Assembly: GCA_016234725.1 (NCBI GenBank)
Contig: JACRAK010000007.1
Span: 2,121 to 66,120 of the forward strand
Direction of reading: 5' to 3'
Source: Candidatus Azambacteria bacterium
GTDB taxonomy: Bacteria > Patescibacteriota > Minisyncoccia > GWC2-36-17 > WO2-46-25
DNA: 64,000 bases
Every line of letters begins with the position of its first letter. The first letter of the stretch is position 1. The translations under genes and the position numbers were made by a program. The notes beneath the pieces are model-generated. The model was not told the DNA's origin. It searched no databases and saw only the letters and a list, made by a program, of their open reading frames with translations. Shown here one piece after another: positions 2,512 to 53,655 of the stretch.

Positions 2512-3261
2512 TTGTCAATCAACTTTACGAGGTCGCACCTCGTAAGATATAATGAAATAGTGAAACGCCCTACTTTTGCCAACGAACACATTTACCATGC
2601 ATACAACAGAGGCGTGGAAAAACGAAATGTCTTTCTCGACGAGGAGGATTATTTTCGCTTCATACACGACCTTTTTGAATTTAATGATGTAAACCCTGCC
2701 CTGCCAAGTTCTTACCAATCTTACGAGGTCGCACCTCGTAAGATTGGGGTTGGGAAAAACAAGCGAAAACCGAGGGAATTTCTCGTTCATATACTTGCTT
2801 TTACTCTTATGCCAAATCATTTTCATCTTCTTCTTATGCAAAAACGGGAGAATGGAATTTCGGAATTTCTCAGAAAATTAAGTGGTGGGTACACAATGTA
2901 TTTTAATCAGAAATATGAAAGATCGGGCGTTCTTTTTCAGGGAAGATTCAAGGCGGCACTCGTTGAGCGAGACGCCCACTTTATCCATCTCCCGTATTAT
3001 ATTCATGCGAACCCCCTCGATCTTGTCATGCCGGAATGGCGCGAGGGGAACTTGAAAAATCCGGAAGCCGCATTCACCTTTCTTACGTCCTATAAGTGGA
3101 GCAGTTTTTCTGATTATATTGGCAAGAGAAATTTTCCATCCGTCACACAAAGGGAGTTTCTACTCAATGGTGCGGGTAACGAAGAAAGATATAAATCCGA
3201 TTTTATTTCATGGTTGAAAAGCATACAACTCGACACCATCTCGGATATAATCATTGAATAA
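2512..3261 (+). CDS. REP-associated tyrosine transposase (RAYT, IS200/IS605-like Y1 HuH transposase); TTG start in the track, true start uncertain
   Basis: HuH motif LMPNHFHLLL; YHAYNRG(V)EKRNVF N-terminal motif; flanked by and containing its cognate REP palindromes. Confidence 0.75.
   Translation: MSINFTRSHLVRYNEIVKRPTFANEHIYHAYNRGVEKRNVFLDEEDYFRFIHDLFEFNDVNPALPSSYQSYEVAPRKIGVGKNKRKPREFLVHILAFTLMPNHFHLLLMQKRENGISEFLRKLSGGYTMYFNQKYERSGVLFQGRFKAALVERDAHFIHLPYYIHANPLDLVMPEWREGNLKNPEAAFTFLTSYKWSSFSDYIGKRNFPSVTQREFLLNGAGNEERYKSDFISWLKSIQLDTISDIIIE
2525..2545. repeat. REP palindrome copy 1 (ttacgaggt-cgc-acctcgtaa) at the 5' end of the RAYT gene
   Basis: perfect 9-bp-arm palindrome, identical core to copies 2 and 3. 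Confidence 0.85.
2715..2747. repeat. REP palindrome copy 2 (15-bp arms) inside the RAYT ORF, in-frame (encodes YQSYEVAPRKIGVG)
   Basis: ccaatcttacgaggt cgc acctcgtaagattgg. Confidence 0.85.
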
Positions 3262-3420: not shown

Positions 3421-6400
3421 TTAGAGCTGCTTCAAGAACCCGAAGATGTCCTGGAAGTTGGTGATGATAAGGTCGATCACGGTTTCGCCTTTCTTGGGCG
3501 TCAGGATGGTAAAGTCGGTCGAGCGTCCTTTGTTGTTGGACGGATCTGCCGACTCGACCTGGAAGCGGTACACCGCGCCCGGCTTGAAGCTCGTGATCAC
3601 CATCACATGGCTTGTCGTATACTCCTGGTCGAGCTTCGAGAATTCGACAAGGTCGCCTTTGCCCACGCCCTCTTTCCAGAATATCTGTGAAGTGGACGGC
3701 TCGTCCGTTTCCCAATAGATGAGCGTCTGCGTCCGTTCCGTTTTGCCCGGGAATATCGTGGACTCGGAGCGTACCTTGCTGATCACCGGCGCTTTCTCGT
3801 CCACCGTCGTGCGGATCGTGCCGATCACTTTGGAGGCGCGCGCATCGGTCACGTCCGCGCTCGATATCTCGATAAGGAAGTTGGTATTCGACGTAAGGTT
3901 CGCCACCGTCACTTCGTGGTCTTTCACGAATTCCGGCTTGCCCTGCGTCCTTGCTTCTTTGCTCAACAGCTCTCCGTCATCAAACGGCGTGTAGCGCACC
4001 TGCGAATTGGAAAGCGTGTTCGTCTTCCACACGACCGTGATGGAGTTTTCCGTGATGCGTTTGAATGAGTAATCAAGGATCTGCGGCAATTCCGGCTTGG
4101 TCTCAAACACAAAGTCGCGCGATTTGCCTTCCGGCCCCACTTTCGCCTGCGAACGGATCTGGAAATGATACGCCGTTGCGGGCTCAAGGTTCGGCACCGT
4201 CACGACGTGCGTCGTCACCTCTTCCCGCGGCTGGCCGACCTGCACGGTGTAGGGGTCCTTCGCATTCGGATCGTATTCGTCCTGCGGCACCAGCGCGATC
4301 AGCGAACCGGCCGGCTTGTTCGTGCGCCACGTCACCGTCGCTTTGTTCGAGTCGATATCCACCTGCGGCACGCCGCCGATGATCGCAGGCGGCACGACTT
4401 CCTGCGTGATCTCTGAAATGGTGTCGGTGATCTCGGTCGTCAACTCTTCAAGATCCGAAAGCGACACATCGGTGGACACGCTCTTGAGGATCGATTTGAA
4501 CCGCTGCACCGCGTCTCTGAGTGAATCCTGCGTCTTTGCCTTGCCGCGCAATTCTTCGAGTTCTTTTTTAAGCGATTCCAGATCTTCTTTCGCAAGCAAC
4601 GCTTCTTCTTCGACGGTAAGCGTCGTGAATGTCTGGTCGCCCGAGTACGCGCGATTCCCGCGCTGATCGGCGGACATCACTTTGAAATTGTATGCGGTCT
4701 TCGGATTAAGCCCCGACACCGTCACGGTATGATCGGTCGCCATTTCTTCCGAACCGGCGAGGCCCCCATAGTTCATCGTTACGCCGTATTTCACCAGCGA
4801 ATCGGCCGATTCGTCGGTCGTCCACGCGATCGTCGCCGCTGTCGCCTTGATGTCTTTGATCACGAGCGACGCGATGAGCGGCGGCGTCACATCGCCCACC
4901 TCTACGATGGTCCTGCCCACCGTTACCACGTCTTTTGCGATGGTGGCGCATGAAAGCGTCGCTGATACTTCGCCGCCGGAAGCGTTGAGTGACCGCACTT
5001 TCGCATAATAGGTCGTACTTTCGGTGAGGCCGGTGAACGTATTGGAGTGCGCGGTCACATAACCCGCCGCAGCGCGCGATGCGTTATCGATCGTCCCTGT
5101 CGGATACTGCGCAACCTGCGCGCCAGCTACGGTCGAGAAATAATTTGCACCGACATCAGCAGAAAGCAAGGAAAGTTCTGTCGTGGAGAACTGGTCGGTC
5201 GTCCACGTCACCGTTGCGGTGGAAGAGGTCGTGGAACATGCCGCCATCGTCGTTATTGCCGGCGGCGTTTGGGTGGTTGTTGTCAGAGAGCGGATCGTTG
5301 ATTCATCGTACTGCGTGTACGAATCGCTTGATGAGTTTTGGTCCGTAGAGCGCACTTTATAATAGTAGGTTGCCGAGTATGTCAGGTTCGGAATAACGAC
5401 CGTATGCACATACTGCCCGTTGCCGTCCGCCGAGGTTACCTGCGCGCTTGAACCGACTGATATCGGATTGACGAGCGCCGATGCGCTTGTCGTCGCGTAA
5501 AACACGATGGAGTCGGATGCCTTATCCGTTTTCCATGTAATAGAGGCAGAGTCAAACGCCGGCGTCGCCACGATGCTTCCGGAGACAATCGCGGGGCCAT
5601 TTTGCGTGGTGAATGTGTAGCCCGCATCCGACGCGCCTTCAAATGCGCAATTGCCCGTCGCATCGCACGACTCCGCGGCATACCGGTACTGCATGTTCTT
5701 GGTCAGATTTGAAAGCGCGATCGTATGCGTTGCGGGCGTGCTTGTCGCGACCGTGAGATAGCCGGGATTTCCCAACTTCGAGGTATATCGCTCGCGGCCA
5801 ACTTTTCCGCTATTCACGTTATTCGTGAAATCCTGCTGTGTCGCAAAATATACCGCGGCATTCGTCGCGCCCGACGCGCCATCCGTCGCGTTAAACGAGA
5901 CCGTCGCCGATGTCGCCTTCACCAGCGAACTCGCCACGTTCGTGACCACCGGCGCCGTAGCGTCATTGCCGCCGCCTCCTTCGCCGAGATTTACCGCCCC
6001 GTCCGGTTTCGCCGTCGTCGAGGCATTCGAACGAATGGACGTATTGCCGTTTGCCGCGGTCACGCCCAAGCGATACCGATAATACAGGTTCGTATTAAGA
6101 TTCTGATGCACATAGTAGTTGGTGGAAATGCTCGTGATCGGCGTCGTAGCGTTTATATAAGAAGAAAATGTCGTGTTGTTGGTCGATGTCGCGTATTCGA
6201 TCTTATATGAAGCGAAATCAGACGATGTCGCCGTTTCCCACCCGATGAATAAGCGCCAGTCGCTCGTGCCAACCTTGGAAACATCCTGCACCAAAAATGA
6301 GCTTGATGCCGCCGGCATGATCGTCGATGCGGTGGATGTTGCCGCGGTGTTCGCGTACGGGTCGCGTACCTGCACCTTCAATGTCTTTACTTCAAAATCG

Positions 6401-14989: not shown

Positions 14990-15124
14990 TAATAATGACC
15001 GCGGTGATATGTATTACAGTGTATTACTCTATCTCGGTTCTTACTATGCCTGTTATTACTACGGGACGAAAGAGAGGAGAGGGGAGGGGAGAGAAAAAGA
15101 AGAAAGGAATTTGTAATACACTCG

Positions 15125-15156
15125 TCACAAACTCACGCGTATGCGTGAGTTTGTGA
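15125..15156. repeat. dispersed palindromic element copy 1 (tcacaaactcacgc-gtat-gcgtgagtttgtga), preceded by tgtaataca
   Basis: perfect 14-bp arms; near-identical copies at 15756-15789 and 24111-24142. Confidence 0.8.
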
Positions 15157-15169
15157 TTTTCCTGTTCTC

Positions 15170-15718
15170 TTATTCAATTCCGAATACGCGCTTTAATTTT
15201 TCTTCCCCTTCAAAGCGGGACACATACATGAGTATGATGTGATCCCGAACACCCCAAAATACGCCAAGCGCATCTATTTCCTTCTCGCATGGAAACGGAG
15301 ATAAAAACACGCTCTTTTGCAGCTGATAAAAATCGAGTTCTTTTAATTTCCGTCGCAGCGCATCGCGCGCCGTATTCTTATGGCTCGGGATATCAAACAT
15401 CACCAACCGCCATGTACCATCCCAGCGCTTCGGCCGTGCAAGCGTCATGGTTTCAAGATTATATTTCAACACCGCTTCTTTTCCGCCCGCCTTTAATCGC
15501 AAACGGATCGTCCCATCTGCGGCCTCATGTATATCGATCAATTCTCGTTTCTGCAGGCGCTTCAGATCCTGCATAAATTTGTTTTTTTCAAATTTTTTCG
15601 CGCGCATATACTCCCGTAGCAATTGGCGGGGGAGAAGAGGATTTGCGACGGAAAGCGCCGCAACACCGCCGGCAAGCGCCACGAAATGCAAAATCTTTTT
15701 TGTATGCGAATCTTTCAT
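15170..15718 (-). CDS. hypothetical protein: N-terminal hydrophobic segment, wHTH-like region, C-terminal Cas2/VapD-like (PaaX-C-like) fold suggested by WRLVMFDIPSHKNTARDALRRKLKELDFYQLQKSVF
   Basis: 182 aa ORF; the motif resembles the Cas2/VapD beta-alpha-beta core; weak, family not certain. Confidence 0.4.
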   Translation of the reverse strand: MKDSHTKKILHFVALAGGVAALSVANPLLPRQLLREYMRAKKFEKNKFMQDLKRLQKRELIDIHEAADGTIRLRLKAGGKEAVLKYNLETMTLARPKRWDGTWRLVMFDIPSHKNTARDALRRKLKELDFYQLQKSVFLSPFPCEKEIDALGVFWGVRDHIILMYVSRFEGEEKLKRVFGIE

Positions 15719-15755
15719 ATATATCTATATCCTATCTCCAGTATATCAGATATTT

Positions 15756-15789
15756 GTCACAAAATCACGCATACGCGTGATTTTGTGAC
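15756..15789. repeat. dispersed palindromic element copy 2 (gtcacaaaatcacgc-atac-gcgtgattttgtgac)
   Basis: variant of the 15125 and 24111 copies. Confidence 0.75.
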
Positions 15790-15904
15790 AAGCTTATGAA
15801 AAGATGTAGCGCACGGTGGGCGCGTACTATGCATTGTGCAACCATAAAAAAGGTGGTATAAAAGCCTGGTATCGTTATCGTATTTACTGCGCGCGCGCCT
15901 GTAG

Positions 15905-16610: not shown

Positions 16611-18517
16611 AACTCTCCCTTACACAACAAGCATTGCTGTTGTGCGCCATCACCCTGCTTTCAAGCGGCATCGCGCTGATATGGTTTGGCACCGATGCGC
16701 GCGTTCTTGTCCTTGCGATCACCATATCCATCGCAATGGCCGCATTCGGCGTGCGCATTCTTTTTTCCACGATACGATCCCTCAGCGATCTGCGTTCCCG
16801 CGTCGACCAAGTGGCAAAAGGGAACTATGACGTCATCACGCCGGTGCGCGGCATCGGCGAGATCGAAAAACTCGTCGACGCGTTCAACGTCATGGCGTTC
16901 CGGCTGAAACATCATGAGCGGCATCTCGCGCACAAAGCATACCAAGCCGCAGTGCTCAAAGAGATCTCGGAGCGCATCACCGCGTCGCTCGACGAAAGCG
17001 AAGCGGTGGAGATCATCGCGGGATCGCTCGGCAAGGTCGTGCCCTACAGCATCGCTTCGTATCTCACGCTCAAAAACAACGGCGCCGCGCTCCTCAAGTG
17101 CCACATCGAAGAATCGGTCAACAAAGCATTCGCGGAGGAAGCAAAGCGCATCCTGTTTGGCGCGCTCGCTGCGCTTGGAAACAGCACGCTCTCAGAAGAA
17201 CAGATCGAAAAAACGATATGTTTTGGCGCATTCTTTGACGAGGAAGCAAAAGCCCCCGTGCGCTCGCACTTTACGCTTCCCATATATGTGAATAGCGCGC
17301 TCACCGGGATCATCACCGTCACCTCCGCAACGCCGAATCTGTATAAGGAAGAGGAGATAGGTATTTTATACACTGTCACGGAACAGGCGGGCGCGACGAT
17401 ATCGAAAACGAAAGCTCTCATCGCCGAGGAGTCGAACAAGACCCAGTCCATGCTTTCGTCCATCAACGAAGGACTCATTATGGTCACCACCGGACAGAAA
17501 ATATCGATCATCAATGAAAAAGCGAAAGAGATCATCGGCATCCCGCACCAGGACAACCCCACATTGCTCGATGTCATTCAGGCGCTCTACGGTACATTCG
17601 ATTTTCGCGGCGCCACCGACCGCGTGCTTGCGTCCAAACAAACGCAATCATTCCAAGAATTCACCGCGGGGGCCAGCGCATACAAGATCATCGCGAACCC
17701 CGTGAAAGAAAAAGATGGGGACATCGTCGGCGTCGTATTCATCTTTTCCGACATCACGAAAGAAAAAGAGATCGACCGGATGAAAACGGAATTCATTTCC
17801 ATCACCTCGCACCAACTGCGCACGCCGCTCTCATCCATGAAATGGTTCCTTGAAATGCTCATCAACAAAGATGCCGGCGAACTGCCGGAAAAAGCAAAAA
17901 CGATCGTTGAGGATGTATACAGATCGAACGAGCGCATCATCACGCTCGTGAACGACCTGCTTGATGTATCGCGCATCGAGGCGGGCAAGATGCAGAACGA
18001 ACCGACGCCGACCAACCTCATTGAATTCCTCAAAAGCATGCTTCCGGAAGCAGAGCAACAATTCAAGCAACGGTGTCAAACATTCGAATTCCGCCGGCCG
18101 GATACGCTTCCGCGCGCGATGGTGGACCCCAAGCTCGTATGGCAGGTGATCGGGAATCTTTTGAGCAATGCGTCCAAATACACGCCGGAAGGAGGGAAAA
18201 TATCGCTTGAGCTTTCTATTCACGATGATGCCGTTCTTTGTGCGATCACCGACAACGGCTACGGCATCCCTGAATTCCAACAGCATCGGATATTCGAGAA
18301 ATTCTTCCGCGCGGACAATACCGCGAAAATGGAAGGCACCGGGCTTGGCATGCACATCGCGCGGCAGATCACCAACGCGATGGGAGGAACACTATGGTTT
18401 GAATCCGCAGAAGGAAAAGGAACGGCGTTTTATCTTTCGCTGCCGATCACCGGCGCAAAAAAACAGGAAAAACCCGTGCGGTCACGCGCTAAAAATGATA
18501 CACTGCAACCCATATGA
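16607..18517 (+). CDS. membrane sensor histidine kinase (2 TM, HAMP, GAF/PAS-like, HisKA, HATPase_c)
   Basis: H-box EFISITSHQLRTPLSSMKWFLEML; G-boxes GTGLGMHIARQI; GTG start overlapping the REC stop. Confidence 0.85.
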   Translation: MKLSLTQQALLLCAITLLSSGIALIWFGTDARVLVLAITISIAMAAFGVRILFSTIRSLSDLRSRVDQVAKGNYDVITPVRGIGEIEKLVDAFNVMAFRLKHHERHLAHKAYQAAVLKEISERITASLDESEAVEIIAGSLGKVVPYSIASYLTLKNNGAALLKCHIEESVNKAFAEEAKRILFGALAALGNSTLSEEQIEKTICFGAFFDEEAKAPVRSHFTLPIYVNSALTGIITVTSATPNLYKEEEIGILYTVTEQAGATISKTKALIAEESNKTQSMLSSINEGLIMVTTGQKISIINEKAKEIIGIPHQDNPTLLDVIQALYGTFDFRGATDRVLASKQTQSFQEFTAGASAYKIIANPVKEKDGDIVGVVFIFSDITKEKEIDRMKTEFISITSHQLRTPLSSMKWFLEMLINKDAGELPEKAKTIVEDVYRSNERIITLVNDLLDVSRIEAGKMQNEPTPTNLIEFLKSMLPEAEQQFKQRCQTFEFRRPDTLPRAMVDPKLVWQVIGNLLSNASKYTPEGGKISLELSIHDDAVLCAITDNGYGIPEFQQHRIFEKFFRADNTAKMEGTGLGMHIARQITNAMGGTLWFESAEGKGTAFYLSLPITGAKKQEKPVRSRAKNDTLQPI

Positions 18518-19947
18518 CGTTTCAGATCAAGCTCACGCTCCTTTTCACCCTTCTCATCGCCGTTCTCATTGGCGGGCTTTTTTATGAGTTCGACACCACG
18601 GTAGAAAGCTATTTGAGAAACACGGCGATCAAAAATTTTCACGCCATCGTTGAAACAAGCGAAGGAGCGTATTTCGCGTTCGCCGATAAAATAAAAACGA
18701 GGACGCTTGACTGGAGCTCGGACGGCGCCATCCGCGCCGCGACAGGGAACATCCTCTCGCTCCCGGAAGGGGAAGAGCATGCGGCTGCCGTAAACAACCT
18801 TGCTCGCTACCTCCGCGAAGAAAAACTGAAACATGATCCCTCGATAAGCATCATCGATATTCTCGATAAAAACGGCATCGTCGTCGTTTCTTCGCGCGCC
18901 GACCGCATCGGCATCGATGAAAAAAAGGAAGAAGAAAAATTCCACGCGCACCGATTCAGCGAAGCGATCGCTTCGCCATTATTCCGCGAAGTGTTCGTCA
19001 CCAATGTCGTCTATGAGCCCGACGAAGGCATGGAGCCGATGATCCACGCCGTCACGCGCATCTTCTCTGCGGTGAAAGACGCGCAGGGCAACCTCGTGCC
19101 GATGGATGCGGTGATGCTCCTGCACTTCACCAATATCGATGAGCTCGGCAACATACTCTCGGGCCAACAGCAGATCGAGCAGGGCGCGCTCAGCGGACGC
19201 GTGCTGTTTGAATACCTCAAAACCGCCGACATCTACATGGTGAACAAAGACAATCTCATCATCACCCCTTCCCGTTTTGTCGGAGACGCGCTTCTGAAAC
19301 TCCGCGTCAACACGTATCCGGTGAAGGCGTGCCTTGAGGAAGGGCGTGAGATCGCGGGGGAATACACCAACTACCGGGGCATCAGGGTGTTTGGCGCGTC
19401 CATGTGCCTTGTGCGCGACCATACCGTGCTTATTGCGGAAGTGCAAGCAGACGAGATATTGGCGCCGATAAAAGCATTTCGCTCAAAACTCGCGCTTGCG
19501 AGCATTCTTATCGCGCTTGCGGGCGCGCTCGGTGTTTCGCTGTTAAGCCGTTTCTTTTTGAGAAATCTCAAGCCGATCGCACTCGCGGTAAACGAAGTTG
19601 CGCTTGGGAACGCTTCTGTCCGCGCGAAAATAAAAGGGCATGATGAGATCGCACAGGTGGGACTCGTGTTCAACCAGATGCTTGATGCCATTGAAAAAAC
19701 CGGCCGCGAGCTGCAAGACGCGCAAACCAAGCTCACGAGCATCAATACCGATCTTGAACAGCGCGTGAAAGAACGCACCGGGGAGTTGGAACAGCTGAAA
19801 GCGGGTCTTGAACAAACCGTCATGGAACGGACACAGGAAATGAAAGAAAAAATGGAAGAACTCGAAAAATTCAAAAAACTCACCGTCGGCAGAGAATTAA
19901 AAATGATAGAACTTAAAAAAGAGATCGAAATGTTAAAAAATAAGTAG
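18514..19947 (+). CDS. membrane sensor protein with periplasmic Cache-like region, HAMP domain and C-terminal coiled coil (no kinase or MCP signalling domain)
   Basis: N-terminal TM LTLLFTLLIAVLIGGLF; second TM then HAMP (LKPIALAVNEVALGNASVRAKIKGHDEIAQVGLVFNQMLDAI); heptad-rich C-terminus. Confidence 0.6.
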   Translation: MTFQIKLTLLFTLLIAVLIGGLFYEFDTTVESYLRNTAIKNFHAIVETSEGAYFAFADKIKTRTLDWSSDGAIRAATGNILSLPEGEEHAAAVNNLARYLREEKLKHDPSISIIDILDKNGIVVVSSRADRIGIDEKKEEEKFHAHRFSEAIASPLFREVFVTNVVYEPDEGMEPMIHAVTRIFSAVKDAQGNLVPMDAVMLLHFTNIDELGNILSGQQQIEQGALSGRVLFEYLKTADIYMVNKDNLIITPSRFVGDALLKLRVNTYPVKACLEEGREIAGEYTNYRGIRVFGASMCLVRDHTVLIAEVQADEILAPIKAFRSKLALASILIALAGALGVSLLSRFFLRNLKPIALAVNEVALGNASVRAKIKGHDEIAQVGLVFNQMLDAIEKTGRELQDAQTKLTSINTDLEQRVKERTGELEQLKAGLEQTVMERTQEMKEKMEELEKFKKLTVGRELKMIELKKEIEMLKNK

Positions 19948-19970
19948 CGATGCGAATATACGAATTATAC
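19944..19970. repeat. left inverted repeat of the GxxExxY cassette (gtagcgatgcgaatatacgaattatac)
   Basis: 25/27 nt perfect reverse complement of 20369-20404. Confidence 0.85.
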
Positions 19971-19972
19971 TA

Positions 19973-20374
19973 ATGATACAAATAGCTGAAAAGAAAAATA
20001 AAATTATATGTCCGGAGTTGTCCTATTTATTAACCGGTATTTGTTTTGATGTTCACAACACAAAAGGGAGGTTTTTAAGAGAAAAACAATATGGGGATGA
20101 AATTGAATTACGATTAAAAGAAGCGGGCTTGCCTTATATACGAGAAGCTTCAATCGAAAAAACAGGCAATATTATAGATTTTATTATTGATGAGAAAATT
20201 ATTTTAGAAATTAAAGCAAAACGGCTTTTAGAAAAAGGGGATTTTTACCAAACCCAACGCTATTTGCAAATAACAAATTTTAAACTTGGGCTTTTAGTAA
20301 ATTTTCGCAATCGTTATCTAAAACCAGTAAGGATTATTAAGATAGAAACAGACAATAGGCATAAATTTGTATAA
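19973..20374 (+). CDS. GxxExxY protein (PD-(D/E)XK nuclease superfamily; a family typically encoded in 23S rRNA intervening sequences)
   Basis: REKQYGDEIELRLKEAG...IIDFIIDEKIILEIKAKRLL...QTQRYLQITNFKLGLLVNF; AT-rich relative to neighbours. Confidence 0.75.
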   Translation: MIQIAEKKNKIICPELSYLLTGICFDVHNTKGRFLREKQYGDEIELRLKEAGLPYIREASIEKTGNIIDFIIDEKIILEIKAKRLLEKGDFYQTQRYLQITNFKLGLLVNFRNRYLKPVRIIKIETDNRHKFV

Positions 20375-20404
20375 TTCGCATAATTCGTATATTCGCATCG
20401 CTAC
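20369..20404. repeat. right inverted repeat of the GxxExxY cassette (with a 9-bp internal duplication)
   Basis: reverse complement gtagcgatgcgaatatacgaattat[gcgaattat]ac. Confidence 0.85.
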
Positions 20405-20418
20405 TCTTAATAAAATAT

Positions 20419-20919
20419 ATGGCCCAACAAAACGACGTATTGAAAAAAATAACCCCGCGAAATCCGGCCGACCTCGCGCTCGCGAACCTCATGCCGCGCC
20501 GCCCCACGATGGGCCCCGATGTACCGGTCGTATTGTGGCGGGTATTGCGCCTGGTAAGCTTGCACGACATACTCGGAGATGAAACGCCGGCCATCGCATA
20601 TCTTATGGGTAAGCGCCTCGGCGCCATGCTCGGCGCGAAAACCATCGAAGAACTGCACGAACAGCTCACCCGGATGAAGATCGGCAGGCTTGATCTTTCC
20701 GTGAACACGCCCGATGCCGTGCATCTTGCGATCGGCGAATGCCTCACGTGCGACGGCATCACGCCGCCTATCGGCAGGGCGATATGCCAGCTTGAAGCGG
20801 GCGTCATCGCGGGGGCGCTTGAGACCATCTATCCGGGGAGAAAGGCCGCGGGCGAAGAAACAAAATGCATCGGCGGGCTTGGCGATGACGTGTGTCTTAT
20901 TGAATGCCGCATTATTTAG
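20419..20919 (+). CDS. V4R (4-vinyl reductase-like) small-molecule-binding domain protein
   Basis: C-terminal IGECLTCDG...CQLEAGVIAGALE resembles the V4R ExxxCxxxG core; translationally coupled to the downstream kinase (15-nt overlap). Confidence 0.5.
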   Translation: MAQQNDVLKKITPRNPADLALANLMPRRPTMGPDVPVVLWRVLRLVSLHDILGDETPAIAYLMGKRLGAMLGAKTIEELHEQLTRMKIGRLDLSVNTPDAVHLAIGECLTCDGITPPIGRAICQLEAGVIAGALETIYPGRKAAGEETKCIGGLGDDVCLIECRII

Positions 20920-22280
20920 CCCTTATGAAAGAGCACCCTTCCGCGCCCCTCAGCGCGGCACAGCGCGAGATAGAGCGCGTCAAGATCGTCTATGAAGAAG
21001 ACGCTATGGCGCGCCGGGTACGCGCCCAAGCCGAGGAACGACTTCATGAAAAAAGGATCGAAGATCAATCGCTGCGGCTTAAAAGCAAAATGGAGGAATT
21101 GCGCGATGGCGAGATCGCCACGCTCAACATCCTCGAAGACACGCGCGAGCTGGAGCTCACGCTGGAATCAGAGCGCGACCGGCTTTCCCATATTATCGCA
21201 TCCATGAACGAAGGATTAGTGTTCATCGATAACGCATATCGCATCATTCTTGCCAACCCTGTCGCGGCTAACATGCTTGAGATCGCCGTGGAAAAAGCAC
21301 CCGGCATAAATCTGATCGACATCACCACCCTCTGGAAGGGAAACAAAAAACTTTCCACCGAAGAGCGGTTCAGCACGAAAGCACTGACGACCGGCAAGCC
21401 CGTTTTTGCCTCGCTCGCAGATGATATTTTTATAGAGACGCAGAGCGGAAGAAAATTCCCTGTCGCGTTCATGATCTCTCCGCTCACCGAGAAAAACGAC
21501 GCGACAGAAGCGGTGATAGTGTTTCGCGACATCACCGAAGAAAAAAATCTTGCTGAAGCGCAGAAGAGCTTCGCATCGGTCGCGTCGCATCAGCTCCGCA
21601 CGCCGCTCACCGCCGTCCAATGGAATCTTGAACTCCTGATGGGCAAAGAAGTGGGAACGCTCACCGACAAACAAAAACAATTCGCCCTCGATGCATATGA
21701 AGGAGCGGAAAAGCTCGTCGAAACGATCAACCTGCTTCTTTCGCTCACGCGGGTGGAAAGCGGATTTGTTCAAATAGATCCTTCGCCGATCGCGATCCCT
21801 GATTTCATGCGCGCCATTGCGGATGAGCTCGCGCCGCTTGCCGCCCAAAAAGAACTTACGCTCACCATGCGTGAGCCCCAAGATCCGATACCGCACATCA
21901 TGCTTGATGCGCCCATGCTCCGTGAAGTTGCCGTGAACATTCTTTCAAACGCGATCCGCTATTCCAACCCGGGAGGCGCGGTGGAGGTGGCATTCGAAAC
22001 AAGCGATAGCGCCGTCACGATATCGGTGAAAGACAACGGTATCGGGATCCCCGCGGCGCAGCATTCCCGCATCTTTGAAAAATTCTTCCGTGCGGACAAC
22101 GCCATCCGCAAAACCGCGGACGGCACGGGGCTCGGCCTCAACCTCGCCAAAGCGCTCGTCACGCTGTGGCACGGTACGCTATGGTTTGCATCAGAAGAAG
22201 GAAAGGGCACGACGTTCTATTTCACCATTCCCTACGAAGGCATAAAAGAAAAGCGCGAAGGAAAATCACTTGTCATGTGA
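20904..22280 (+). CDS. cytoplasmic PAS-domain sensor histidine kinase
   Basis: H-box FASVASHQLRTPLTAVQWNLELL; HATPase G-boxes DNGIGIP, GTGLGLNLAK; no TM segments. Confidence 0.85.
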   Translation: MPHYLALMKEHPSAPLSAAQREIERVKIVYEEDAMARRVRAQAEERLHEKRIEDQSLRLKSKMEELRDGEIATLNILEDTRELELTLESERDRLSHIIASMNEGLVFIDNAYRIILANPVAANMLEIAVEKAPGINLIDITTLWKGNKKLSTEERFSTKALTTGKPVFASLADDIFIETQSGRKFPVAFMISPLTEKNDATEAVIVFRDITEEKNLAEAQKSFASVASHQLRTPLTAVQWNLELLMGKEVGTLTDKQKQFALDAYEGAEKLVETINLLLSLTRVESGFVQIDPSPIAIPDFMRAIADELAPLAAQKELTLTMREPQDPIPHIMLDAPMLREVAVNILSNAIRYSNPGGAVEVAFETSDSAVTISVKDNGIGIPAAQHSRIFEKFFRADNAIRKTADGTGLGLNLAKALVTLWHGTLWFASEEGKGTTFYFTIPYEGIKEKREGKSLVM

Positions 22281-29517: not shown

Positions 29518-29527
29518 GGTTATAACA

Positions 29528-29556
29528 GCGAGTAGAATGTAGCGAGTAGGGAGTAG
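29528..29556. repeat. left inverted repeat of 4HB cassette 2, GTAG-repeat family (gcgagtagaatgtagcgagtagggagtag)
   Basis: 15-mer gcgagtagaatgtag is the exact reverse complement of part of 29971-29992. Confidence 0.8.
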
Positions 29557-29616
29557 AAGAAATGCAAAAGAGAAGCAAAAATCAGAACTTAGGGAGTAGG
29601 GAAAAGAGCGTGAGAA

Positions 29617-30465
29617 ATGAAAACGCAAACATATAAAGATCTGATAGTGTGGCAGAAATCCAAAAAACTTGTTTTGGAGATCTATGCTCTTGCCGAGCAA
29701 TTTCCTCCCAGCGAAAAATTCGGGATCACCTCCCAGCTTACGCGCGCGGCGATCTCCATCCCGTTAAACATCGCTGAAGGGTATAGACGAAGGGGGGATA
29801 AGGAAAGAGCGCAGTTTTTTTCTATTGCTTTTGGTTCGGCCGCAGAAGTCGAAGCATTGATCGATATCTGTAAAGATTTGCACCTTTTCAAAAATTGTAA
29901 TTTCACCGCCAGCGAGAATCTTTTAGACGAAGTATTGCGCATGCTAAATGTTTTCATAAAAAATTCTTCCCTACATTCTACTCGCTACTCGCCGCCTTCT
30001 CCACAAAAGGGTTTCACTATTCTCGAACTTATCGTTGTACTCGGTATTTTCGCCGTCATTGCCGGCGTTGCGGCGGTACAACTTGCCAACTTCCAGCGCG
30101 GCACCGTGCTTGAAAGCACATCAAAAGACGTCGTGAGCGCGTTGCGCTTGGCGCACGACAAAGCAATGCTCGGAGAGGACGGTGACAGCAACGGACAAGG
30201 TGATGCGTGGGGCATCCGTTTTGCCAACAGCACAACAGATACGTATGCTTCTTTTTATGGTGCAGCGTACAATGTAAACAATGTGAAAGAAACGGTTTAT
30301 CTTTCTCCGCCGCTCGCATTCAGCGCGCCCACTGAAGGAAACAATACCGATGTGATATTCACCAAGCTTTCAGGGACAACGACTTCGGCGAACATCACCA
30401 TCGGTGACAACGGCCAGATAAAGACGGTCACCGTGGACGCGTCGGGAAGGATCAGCTCAAATTAA
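29617..30465 (+). CDS. composite ORF: four-helix-bundle (IVS-family) protein (residues 1-~118) reading through, with no stop, into a pseudopilin (from ~PQKGFTILELIVVLGIF). The pilin part may start at the internal Met at 29941 (24-aa leader)
   Basis: N-terminal part DLIVWQKSKKLVLEIY...TSQLTRAAISIPLNIAEGYRRR...AFGSAAEVEAL = 4HB family; C-terminal part has a class III signal (G/FTILELIVV); the junction coincides with the right IR of the cassette. Confidence 0.65.
   Translation: MKTQTYKDLIVWQKSKKLVLEIYALAEQFPPSEKFGITSQLTRAAISIPLNIAEGYRRRGDKERAQFFSIAFGSAAEVEALIDICKDLHLFKNCNFTASENLLDEVLRMLNVFIKNSSLHSTRYSPPSPQKGFTILELIVVLGIFAVIAGVAAVQLANFQRGTVLESTSKDVVSALRLAHDKAMLGEDGDSNGQGDAWGIRFANSTTDTYASFYGAAYNVNNVKETVYLSPPLAFSAPTEGNNTDVIFTKLSGTTTSANITIGDNGQIKTVTVDASGRISSN
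29971..29992. repeat. right inverted repeat of 4HB cassette 2 (ctacattctactcgctactcgc), in-frame inside the composite ORF (encodes LHSTRYS)
   Basis: reverse complement gcgagtagcgagtagaatgtag. Confidence 0.8.
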
Positions 30466-45264: not shown

Positions 45265-45782
45265 GCTTGTTTTCTTCTTCCCAAAAGGGTTTTTCCCTCG
45301 TTGAACTGCTGATCTACATCAGCATCTTTTCGGTCATTTCCGCTATTTTTATCGGCGTGCTGTCGCACGCGACGCTCGGGTGGACACGCTCGAAAGTAGA
45401 GTCGGAAGTACAGCAGAATCTGCGTTTTGCGATGGAAGATATCGCCCGCACCGCACAGAAAGCGACATCCATTTCTTCGCCGTCCGTCGGAAGCTCGGCA
45501 AGCGCGCTCACCGCGGTCGTCGGCGGACAAACCATACAATACTCGCTTTCGGGCACCGTACTGCAAAAACAAACTGGCGCAAACCCCGTAGAAAATATCA
45601 CTACCGATAAAGTAAAGGTGACCTATCTTTATTTCAAAACGCTCCAAAACACCGCACTATCAAACACCGGCGTACAGGCGACCTCGACCCGATTTGCCAT
45701 GACCGTGGAGTATAATTCCGACAACAATCAATTTTTCTACACCGAGCATGCCACATCGACCGCAACGCTTAAAAACAGGTGA
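45261..45782 (+). CDS. pseudopilin / minor pilin
   Basis: KG/FSLVELLIYISIFSVISAIFIGVL. Confidence 0.8.
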   Translation: MSLFSSSQKGFSLVELLIYISIFSVISAIFIGVLSHATLGWTRSKVESEVQQNLRFAMEDIARTAQKATSISSPSVGSSASALTAVVGGQTIQYSLSGTVLQKQTGANPVENITTDKVKVTYLYFKTLQNTALSNTGVQATSTRFAMTVEYNSDNNQFFYTEHATSTATLKNR

Positions 45783-45783
45783 T

Positions 45784-45905
45784 CATGAAACATAGATCGT
45801 GAAACTTGAAACATGAAACATCAGGGCTTGAAACATATAACATATAACTTGAAACTGAGCGATTCAGGATTCACGTTTCAGGATTCACGTTTCAGGATTC
45901 ATGAA
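45784..45905. repeat. intergenic repeat block (cttgaaacatgaaac ... 3x caggattcacgttt ... aggattcatga) upstream of and overlapping the PilX-like gene start
   Basis: shares start and end motifs with 46341-46450 and the in-frame block in cca. Confidence 0.7.
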
Positions 45906-46340
45906 CGGGGCGCCGCTCTGCTTGCAACCACGCTTGCCGTTATCATCATCCTGCTTGCGATGGGTCTTTCCATGACATCATCGGGCCTGTTTGAAGGGCT
46001 TATGTCGCAGGCGCAAAGCGACTCGCGCGAGGCGTTCGCGGCCGCGCAATCGGGCGTCAAAGACGCTTATTTGCGCATCGCGCGCAATAAGGGCTTTTCT
46101 TCCGCGGGATATTATATCCCGTCCGATCCCTCCAATTGCACGCTCAACAGCTCTTCTTTGTGCACAAAAGTGATCGTGGAAAAAGACACCGCCGCATCAT
46201 GTTCCCAGTCGATCAGCGCCGGACAGGACTGCCTTATCGTTGCCGGAACGCTCAAAAATACGACGCGAACGATAGAGGTCATTTTGAATGTCAATACAAC
46301 TAATGGTAAAATAAGCGAAGTGTTGTGGAAGGAAATATAG
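45813..46340 (+). CDS. PilX-like minor pilin (non-canonical prepilin N-terminus ERGAALLATTLAVIIILLAMGL); start codon uncertain
   Basis: hydrophobic N-terminal helix after an ERG motif; pilus-cluster context. Confidence 0.55.
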   Translation: MKHQGLKHITYNLKLSDSGFTFQDSRFRIHERGAALLATTLAVIIILLAMGLSMTSSGLFEGLMSQAQSDSREAFAAAQSGVKDAYLRIARNKGFSSAGYYIPSDPSNCTLNSSSLCTKVIVEKDTAASCSQSISAGQDCLIVAGTLKNTTRTIEVILNVNTTNGKISEVLWKEI

Positions 46341-46450
46341 GTCTTGAAACATGAAACGTAAAACTTATAACTCAAAACTTAAAGCTTCAAGACTCGAGTT
46401 CAAGGTTTATGACACATGTTTCAAGTTTCACGATTTAAGATTCAAGATTC
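46341..46450. repeat. intergenic repeat block (cttgaaacatgaaac ... ttcaagattcaagattcatgga) upstream of pilM
   Basis: related to 45784-45905. Confidence 0.7.
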
Positions 46451-49762: not shown

Positions 49763-49804
49763 TAAAAGCCCGTATATGCGTTTTTCAAGCTATCGCTTGA
49801 AAAA
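49763..49804. promoter_or_regulatory. perfect 19-bp-arm palindrome (gtatatgcgtttttcaagc-tatc-gcttgaaaaacgcatatac) between divergent xerD and rpsO
   Basis: read directly from sequence. Confidence 0.6.
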
Positions 49805-49894
49805 CGCATATACTCATAAAAACACCTCTGCCATACCACCTACCGCCCCGCCTTGCATTATTAAACGATGTGTGATATAGTGCATTTCATTGCT

Positions 49895-50667: not shown

Positions 50668-50948
50668 AGGCCGGCGTTTTGTGCGCTATCGGCTCATTCT
50701 CGCGCTTTTCTTTTATTTTTATCTTAACGGAAGTGCAGCCCTTCATTATTTTTTATATACAAGGGCGTGAATGGATTAAAATAAAAGAAAATCGCGAGGA
50801 TGAGCAGAAGAGTCTGTTTAAAAAAATAATTAAAAATAAGTAACGTCGCGGCGGGAGCAGAAGCCCAAATACAAAACCACAGCGTGAAGAGCGTTTTACC
50901 TTGTGGCTTTGGATTTCGGGATTCGATCTCTCTGCGAACACAAAATAC

Positions 50949-53540: not shown

Positions 53541-53655
53541 TGACCCCGTTACAAGCTCGTCGATGGCTTTTTTCAGAAAGCGCTAAGGCGAAGCCGCCTT
53601 ACGGCTTATGCTCGTTGAGAGAAAATGCCTGATATAAGCTTGTAACGGGGTTGAC
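53541..53655 (+). repeat. structured repeated intergenic element copy 1 (tgaccccgttacaagctcgtcgat ... gctaaggcgaagccgccttacggct ... agcttgtaacggggttgac)
   Basis: 14-bp long-range inverted repeat plus an internal 7-bp-stem hairpin; partial copy at 63497-63564. Confidence 0.6.

Follow-up and report, generated by a model that had tools for sequence, protein, structure and literature searches.

A Hairpin-Bounded GxxExxY Nuclease Cassette at an Operon Junction in Candidatus Azambacteria, and Its Apparent Mobile Relatives in CPR Bacteria

Positioned between two signaling genes of a Candidatus Azambacteria bacterium is a short, AT-rich DNA segment in which a gene for a predicted nuclease of the GxxExxY family occupies the loop of a long hairpin. 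We examined this segment, termed here the cassette, in a 64,000-nucleotide stretch of contig JACRAK010000007.1 (GenBank assembly GCA_016234725.1), hereafter the window. The cassette was acquired horizontally, it lies in the sense orientation within an operon with host stop and start codons at the base of its stem, its arms are constrained in sequence, and derivatives lacking its open reading frame (ORF) are found in other genomes. The window copy appears to typify a large group of mobile cassettes, apparently not described before, that occurs in bacteria of the candidate phyla radiation (CPR). Members of this family encode a nuclease of 130-135 amino acids and carry an imperfect hairpin of about 40 bp, and our literature search found no description of this hairpin-bounded GxxExxY architecture.

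The gene upstream of the cassette encodes a 477-amino-acid Cache/HAMP sensor (18514..19947, plus strand; the HAMP gene below), and its TAG stop codon (19945-19947) lies within the left hairpin arm (19943..19983), as the original prediction made from this sequence had proposed. The same arm contains the ATG of the cassette (19973), from which a 133-amino-acid nuclease ORF extends on the plus strand (19973..20374) to a TAA stop codon (20372-20374) contained in the right arm (20365..20405), with both codons falling in the inner portions of the arms. A 13-nucleotide AT-rich linker (20406..20418, plus strand) then leads to the ATG of a V4R/DUF2507 gene (20419..20919, plus strand, 166 amino acids), after which comes a gene for a PAS histidine kinase (20904-22280). 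Immediately before the left arm, the last HAMP codons are replaced by AT-rich sequence (19929..19942, plus strand) that probably marks the left edge of the inserted DNA. The HAMP stop codon is supplied by the element, and the V4R start codon stands 13 nucleotides past its right arm. Based upon empty-site relatives and composition, the entire inserted segment measures about 490 bp (19929..20418, plus strand). Its GC content is 0.288, compared with 0.524 for the HAMP gene, 0.589 for the V4R gene and 0.508 for the window mean, which places it 22-30 points under the host genes.

The two arms form an inverted repeat of 41 nucleotides with 93% complementarity and 381 nucleotides between them. Their outermost 25 nucleotides (19944-19968 and 20380-20404) are perfectly complementary, which confirms the 25-bp perfect inverted repeats noted at the outset as part of longer, imperfect arms of 41 bp. 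The left arm is composed of subrepeats of about 8-9 nucleotides (NAATATAC/NAATTATAC/...). When the 25-nucleotide arm sequence is searched in the window with up to three mismatches, the two arms are the only two matches, and none is found in 100 dinucleotide shuffles of the window (chance expectation 0.00). The long stem anticipated for a transcript of these arms is recovered by RNA folding of positions 19930-20420, with a minimum free energy of -103.5 kcal/mol and z = -4.2, and none of 100 shuffled sequences is equally stable. No rRNA gene was found in the window, where an Rfam search at gathering threshold gave three tRNAs only. The location of the cassette outside rRNA, between the HAMP and V4R genes, and its departure from both flanks in base composition are thus also as originally described.

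The product of the cassette gene matches both PF13366 (PDDEXK_3; E = 1.8e-18, 67.5 bits, cut-off 22) and TIGR04256 (GxxExxY; E = 9.6e-18, 64.6 bits, cut-off 35), and the identical protein carries the NCBI label 'GxxExxY protein', in agreement with the family assignment first made from the letters alone. The PD-(D/E)XK core pattern is present in the ORF, with a glutamate in helix 1 followed by D ... E-x-K, and the catalytic-type residues E37, D69, E79 and K81 are unchanged across 33 homologues. Comparisons of the nuclease ORF yield dN/dS values of 0.09-0.17, with synonymous sites saturated. Judging from these values and residues, the gene is under purifying selection and its catalytic core is intact. 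An AlphaFold2 model (pLDDT, the predicted local distance difference test, 82) exhibits an alpha-alpha-beta-beta-beta-alpha-beta topology. Its best matches among structures in the PDB are all PD-(D/E)XK nucleases and are weak (E of 1.7e-3 and above, template modeling score about 0.45), with lambda exonuclease/Cas4 nearest, accompanied by tRNA-splicing endonuclease, Hjc, I-Bth0305I and I-Ssp6803I. A PDB sequence search with the window protein returned no significant relative (best E 0.63), the PADLOC models gave a weak match to Cas4 (E 2e-4), and the PHROG that it matches is one without an assigned function. The GxxExxY/PF13366 family has itself been recorded without an assigned function (PMC3424549). 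No match to a transposase family (DDE, HUH, serine or tyrosine) was detected for the 133-amino-acid protein, which is encoded by the sole ORF of the cassette.

Evidence for acquisition of the cassette comes from relatives whose V4R proteins are 79-85% identical to that of the window. These organisms share the gene order response regulator, histidine kinase, HAMP, V4R and PAS kinase, and their HAMP orthologue has 475 amino acids and is 74-81% identical. Alleles with the HAMP gene followed directly by the V4R gene, which the original prediction had suggested should be sought, exist in these relatives (loci L013-L020, of which L013-L019 derive from Hainich groundwater data sets), where 22-37 nucleotides separate the HAMP stop from the V4R start, versus 471 in the window. 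The empty allele is seen in three groups of relatives. By V4R identity the window falls with P0124/P0126 (83-84%) and not with the P0132 group (79-82%), and both of these groups are empty. Because close relatives carry the empty site, the cassette was gained in the window lineage after its split from the sampled relatives, and with both V4R groups empty, parsimony favors one gain over two or more losses. The GC deficit of the insert also points to gain. These comparisons establish the cassette as a gained feature rather than an ancestral one that was lost elsewhere. An ancient resident gene would be expected in all relatives with flank-like composition, whereas here the relatives are empty and the GC content differs.

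The boundaries of the insertion can be judged from the same alignments. All relatives end the HAMP protein with ...EIE-RLKA* (codons CGR CTC AAR GCR TAA), whereas the window ends with ...EIE-MLKNK* (ATG TTA AAA AAT AAG TAG), and the 13-nucleotide AT-rich linker of the window is unlike the GC-rich spacers of the relatives. Since both the HAMP end and the linker differ from all relatives, the foreign DNA can be taken to extend from about 19929 to 20418. By this alignment, the insertion replaced the 22-37-nucleotide spacer and the last few HAMP codons, or about 40-50 nucleotides of host sequence. An assembly artefact was rejected as an explanation, given that synteny is kept on both sides and that the same architecture occurs in hundreds of independent assemblies. 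No HAMP or V4R homologue, sought as the mark of a same-synteny donor, was found beside any other sampled GxxExxY locus, and tblastn against the PLSDB plasmids gave no match. A protein-based scan of IMG/VR likewise found no relative, and hence no phage vector; the five arm-pattern matches in that collection do not extend into the rest of the arm and are probably due to chance.

Related cassettes occupy many other genomic sites. A homologue with 78% identity separates the two parts of a split transketolase gene (L001), and one with 77% identity occupies the junction of TraC-like and VirB4-like genes (L003-L012). When the window, L001 and L003 sequences are aligned, homology starts and stops exactly at the arms, and the left arms of the window and L003 are identical at 40 of 41 nucleotides despite their different genomic sites. 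No partner gene (methylase, antitoxin or cas) is found next to the L001 or L003-L012 cassettes. A profile scan of metagenomes from the Joint Genome Institute (JGI) yielded at least 522 GxxExxY relatives, of which the 75 loci with enough flanking sequence were used. Flanking inverted repeats beat all 20 shuffles in 73 of these 75 loci, and the arm consensus common to all is ...CGAT[G/A]C.AATATAC.AAT..ATAC.AAT.... The contexts number dozens of unrelated ones with no conserved neighbors, and among 69 distinct metagenomic contexts the upstream neighbor is co-directional in 52 (opposite in 4) and the downstream neighbor in 64 (opposite in 2). ORF-bearing copies from genome assemblies are in the sense orientation in 10 of 10 cases, the window copy included. 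In 50 of 59 cases, 0-5 nucleotides lie between the end of the upstream host stop codon and the CGAT core, and in most cases the downstream start codon is 0-10 nucleotides past ATCG, with modes of 4-7 nucleotides. With this spacing, the codons that end one host gene and begin the next sit at the base of the stem. At filled sites the stop codon is TAA in 34 cases, TAG in 21 and TGA in 4, and in many copies, including that of the window, the TAG is partly or wholly built of element nucleotides.

The arms also exist without the nuclease gene. A search for the 18-nucleotide arm end in one genome per species (596 Gb) listed more than 119 stretches, where about 70 chance matches are expected by our own calculation, and the matches outside CPR bacteria do not extend into the rest of the arm. 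Among the matches listed are 74 elements, comprising 59 of 67-117 bp (bare hairpins), 11 of 456-551 bp and 4 of 172-281 bp. The 281-bp element (L134) retains a 39-amino-acid remnant of the ORF and represents an intermediate deletion form. Bare hairpins are distributed among Saccharibacteria, Wolfebacteria, Liptonbacteria, Taylorbacteria, Jorgensenbacteria and other Parcubacteria, and often there are several per genome, on different contigs. For elements with both neighbors within 40 nucleotides, 43 of 46 lie between co-directional genes. The L003 locus contains an ORF-bearing copy and two bare hairpins (2676-2792 and 6181-6268) within 4 kb, and another hairpin (L123, 5219-5308) is situated between co-directional tRNA genes (4955-5025 and 5368-5438), which indicates that the elements settle in tRNA clusters too. 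Among these bare hairpins (the two at L003 and about 60 loci among L030-L142), we also observed that the nucleotides between hairpin and ATG are of recurrent types, namely TCATTT-ATG, GCGAAGC(R)-ATG and GCTTTAGC-ATG. The GCGAAGC(R) linker corresponds to a known, very stable mini-hairpin. Given these recurrent types, the element may also supply the gene that follows it with a short linker.

Conservation of the arms exceeds that of the protein-coding sequence. Across 64 elements, the mean pairwise identity of the 36-nucleotide arm core is 0.855 (0.92 when four variable positions are removed), compared with 0.76 at codon positions 1 and 2 and 0.46 at position 3 in the same comparison. An arm core that is more conserved than coding positions must be constrained in its sequence and not just in its pairing, which suggests that a protein recognizes it. 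The arms are nearly identical even between CPR lineages with saturated synonymous sites. Compensatory changes in the stem are also evident among 73 members, with 148 cells changed on both sides versus 89 in shuffles (none of 500 as high), and all slid controls score far under the true stem pairing. For example, the column pair 13-44 is G-C in 26 members, A-U in 22 and G-U in 7. Two other pairs of alignment columns, 15/42 and 23/34 (window positions 19954/20394 and 19962/20386), lie 8 nucleotides apart and are unpaired in 45 and 56 of the 73 members, respectively. These two positions correspond to the base that varies within each NAATATAC subrepeat, and both are paired in the window copy.

For the cassette as a member of its CPR family, the evidence tilts slightly toward a selfish, promoterless, operon-riding nuclease element with derivatives that resemble miniature inverted-repeat transposable elements (MITEs). 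Since the sense orientation is strict and no promoter would fit outside the arms, the cassette would be transcribed solely by read-through from the host operon. With its ATG in the left arm, translation would require that the right arm has not yet been synthesized or that the stem is open, and little nuclease would be produced. The stem might then join the host stop and start codons for termination-reinitiation, or it might be cut by a double-stranded RNA nuclease as occurs in rRNA intervening sequences (IVSs). By either route the host operon would presumably still work. Cleavage of the stem by RNase III is plausible; a search of the 64-kb window for an RNase III signature found none, an outcome that is uninformative. 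The nuclease may recognize the arm core CGAT[G/A]C.AATATAC and spread the full element and also, acting in trans, the ORF-less hairpins. Such a pair of full element and hairpin would resemble the pairing of an autonomous element with its MITEs, or that of RAYT (REP-associated tyrosine transposase, where REP denotes repetitive extragenic palindromic sequences) with REPINs.

A number of observations weigh against this reading. Mobilization of the element by the predicted nuclease through its arms is deduced from sequence comparisons. The window contains no ORF-less hairpin or further arm copy of the family (allowing up to three mismatches), and so gives no sign of activity in this genome, and among the loci listed, an ORF-bearing copy and bare hairpins share one contig at L003. 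That the elements fit so closely to stop and start codons might be explained by the very short spacers of CPR genomes together with selection against disruptive insertions. No direct repeat indicative of a target-site duplication was found at the window copy or at the L001 and L003 copies, and the loss or replacement of about 40-50 nucleotides of host sequence is easier to reconcile with break repair or recombination than with a classical transposition event. Bare hairpins are found in either orientation relative to transcription (32 versus 26), and G.U and A.C intermediates are both common in the stem. Examined for a preference of wobble pairs for the transcribed strand, these data do not support an explanation of the stem in terms of RNA only.

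Parallels can be drawn with several classes of known elements. As with terminal inverted repeats and their MITEs, the same inverted repeats are common to ORF-bearing and ORF-less copies at many sites (at least 60 distinct contexts). In the REPIN/RAYT system, a Y1 gene is reportedly flanked by palindromic repeats, and the likeness to the present family extends to the dispersal of ORF-less repeats in intergenic DNA. However, the enzyme of the cassette is of the PD-(D/E)XK type rather than an HUH/Y1 transposase (its ORF matches PF13366 and not PF01797, Y1_Tnp), its arms pair across the gene rather than each forming a hairpin of its own, and copies lie inside operons at stop/start junctions. The ORF-less copies of 76-117 bp also recall the Correia/NEMIS (Neisseria miniature insertion sequences) and ERIC/IRU (enterobacterial repetitive intergenic consensus/intergenic repeat unit) elements, which are multicopy imperfect palindromes of about 100 bp and are co-transcribed with flanking genes. 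NEMIS RNA hairpins are said to be substrates of RNase III, and ERIC hairpins reportedly modulate mRNA stability. We know of no protein-coding partner for Correia or ERIC elements, whereas for the bare hairpins described here there is a nuclease-bearing version with the same arms; moreover, Correia elements duplicate a TA target and no duplication is seen with the present element. Free-standing homing genes such as seg and mob of phage T4 are similar in that they too insert a short nuclease gene between host genes, with a presence that varies among relatives, and in that the altered host flanks at the filled site resemble co-conversion; PD-(D/E)XK homing endonucleases such as I-Ssp6803I share the fold. 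Homing genes return to one homologous site, in contrast to the dozens of unrelated sites used by this family, and long conserved paired terminal repeats are, to our knowledge, not a feature of free-standing homing genes.

A second cassette of similar design is present in the window (29527-30000). It contains a gene for a four-helix-bundle protein of the 23S_rRNA_IVP family (PF05635, E 2e-36), with an ORF from 29617, and lies directly after the T2SS-F gene (T2SS, type II secretion system). Its architecture is the same as that of the GxxExxY cassette, but its arms differ in sequence and consist of repeated GAGTAG-type subrepeats. The ORF lacks its own stop codon and continues in frame into a downstream pilin gene (KGFTILE prepilin motif), and the GC content is 0.42 compared with 0.51 for the flanks. 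Close relatives differ in its position: at L225 a cassette of this family is located between T2SS-E and T2SS-F, whereas at L228 these two genes are adjacent (TAA-T-ATG) with no cassette. Both of these loci have a Fic gene about 80 nucleotides downstream of T2SS-F, where the window has its cassette. The L003 locus also carries an inverted-repeat-bounded 23S_rRNA_IVP copy. Hence, two protein families associated with IVSs are found in hairpin cassettes of varying position outside rRNA.

The resemblance to rRNA IVSs was the basis of the original prediction, which regarded the GxxExxY family as normally residing in IVSs of 23S rRNA and the window copy as an IVS-type mobile cassette that had escaped into a protein-coding operon. 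The element is about the size of an IVS and, as in IVSs, is AT-richer than its host, with a stem in the range of about 28-40 bp and an ORF that in IVSs has about 120-130 amino acids. The Coxiella IVS, for instance, is about 430-460 nucleotides long and has terminal complementary arms and a small ORF, and the sporadic distribution of IVSs suggests horizontal transfer, their mobility having long been suspected with no mechanism identified (PMC4990558). This similarity in size, terminal stem and small ORF to the IVSs of Coxiella and Leptospira, together with the occurrence of the IVS-associated 23S_rRNA_IVP protein both in a window cassette and in CPR rRNA insertions, is what speaks for escape. 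The IVS-like architecture and the mobility are borne out by our analysis, whereas neither an rRNA origin nor a usual residence of the family in 23S rRNA IVSs is. None of about 150 loci examined is inside an rRNA gene; they sit between protein-coding genes, with one between tRNA genes, and Rfam detected no rRNA in 17 related hairpin loci. Insertion ORFs listed in a census of CPR rRNA insertions include 23S_rRNA_IVP, GIY-YIG and LAGLIDADG, and a text search of its supplement does not find PDDEXK or PF13366 (PMC11270868). Further differences are that IVSs lie in rRNA (23S helix 25/45, or 16S), that those of Leptospira and Coxiella encode the S23p four-helix bundle (PF05635) instead of a PD-(D/E)XK protein, that the cassette ends are precisely fitted to host stop and start codons, and that RNase III excises IVSs from the transcript without religation, an event that for the cassette is a prediction. 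We therefore judge escape from 23S rRNA highly improbable, and if there is any historical link between the two, movement from intergenic positions into rRNA is more likely than the reverse.

Alternatively, the hairpins may have come first. They could constitute an independent repeat family, either spread by another enzyme or serving as host signals for RNA processing or stability, into whose loops GxxExxY genes invaded as homing-type endonuclease genes with the arms as repair homology; the window copy would then be a transferred, already occupied hairpin. Bare hairpins do far outnumber ORF-bearing copies, the ORF invariably occupies the loop and overlaps the inner arms at both ends, the homing endonucleases I-Ssp6803I and I-Bth0305I and the resolvase Hjc are among the weak structural matches, and the unrelated 23S_rRNA_IVP family also occupies hairpin loops, although with other arms. 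Nevertheless, the window arms and ORF arrived together at a site free of hairpins, L134 has the appearance of an ORF-bearing element decaying to a bare hairpin, and each protein family has arms of its own, which suggests co-evolution rather than a common landing pad, so we consider this order of events rather unlikely. It is improbable that the locus serves a resident host function, in which the hairpin would be an mRNA processing, stability or coupling signal, GxxExxY a host nuclease dosed by the stem, and patchiness the result of ordinary gain and loss. Such a role would account for the strong purifying selection on the ORF, the exact placement of the hairpin relative to host codons and the single copy in the window, but not for dozens of unrelated contexts without conserved neighbors, presence or absence among close relatives, the 22-30-point GC deficit, or arms that are nearly identical between lineages with saturated synonymous sites. 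The least probable of these explanations, with a very slim chance of being correct, is a small nuclease for defense or addiction (restriction- or Cas4-like) that travels on a mobile islet, the repeats being incidental recombination scars. The PADLOC match to Cas4, the PHROG of unknown function and the nearness of the lambda exonuclease and Cas4 folds are in line with this idea, but the matches to defense models are far under family level, no partner gene (methylase, antitoxin, cas) is seen in any context, and arms that are more constrained than the protein are not scars. A classical transposon was rejected for want of a target duplication and a transposase. An integron cassette was rejected as well, since there is no attC or integrase, the repeats lie one on each side of the ORF and are complementary to one another, and the neighbors within about 3 kb on either side are signaling genes rather than an integrase.

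Several other repeat-associated features were noted in the window. A Y1_Tnp (IS200/RAYT-like) gene of 249 amino acids (PF01797, E 1.4e-8; 2512-3261, region to 3290) is accompanied by three identical 21-nucleotide hairpins (TTACGAGGTCGCACCTCGTAA) at 2525, 2721 and 3270, that is, at its 5′ end, internally and just past its stop codon, and looks like a REP/RAYT-type arrangement. A PaaX_M/Cas2-like gene of 182 amino acids (15170-15718, minus strand; region 15111-15802) is flanked by two palindromes of 32-33 nucleotides (about 15124-15156 and 15757-15789; TCACAAA.TCACGC.TA.GCGTGA.TTTGTGA), which may be operators or terminators. This gene occurs at the same place in L013 and L016 and is therefore probably resident. 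Between pilin-system genes, a PilX_N-like gene of 175 amino acids (45813-46340; region 45782-46448) with 34-nucleotide inverted repeats (88% complementary, GAAAC-type subrepeats) may be another hairpin-bounded gene. AT-rich intergenic hairpins at 50689-50808, 53543-53651 and 49772-49813 have arms of 35, 30 and 19 nucleotides and loops of 50, 49 and 4 nucleotides, respectively, and show no sequence relationship to the cassette arms.

How rRNA IVSs and their ORFs arose and how they move has remained unexplained (PMC4990558). A tentative possibility, more doubtful than the selfish-element reading itself, is that GxxExxY cassettes are the autonomous members of a new class of very small mobile elements, of which rRNA IVSs are the subset residing in rRNA. 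If so, the class would consist of a nuclease gene of about 400 nucleotides in the loop of its own recognition hairpin that inserts at the stop/start junctions of operons and leaves MITE-like hairpin progeny, and it would be tolerated because the stem rejoins the translation signals or because the element is excised at the RNA level. The origin of IVSs, a question of some 30 years, would then be explained, and the parallel 23S_rRNA_IVP cassettes with it. In CPR bacteria, the GxxExxY family is essentially always packaged in a hairpin at operon junctions, varies between relatives, and is accompanied by abundant ORF-less derivatives. A vague annotation is in this way converted to a testable model of a miniature mobile element, with a candidate enzyme for MITE-like repeats. 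Our findings also suggest a way in which compact genomes may tolerate insertions within their operons, wherein the stem of the inserted element joins the stop codon of one host gene to the start codon of the next.

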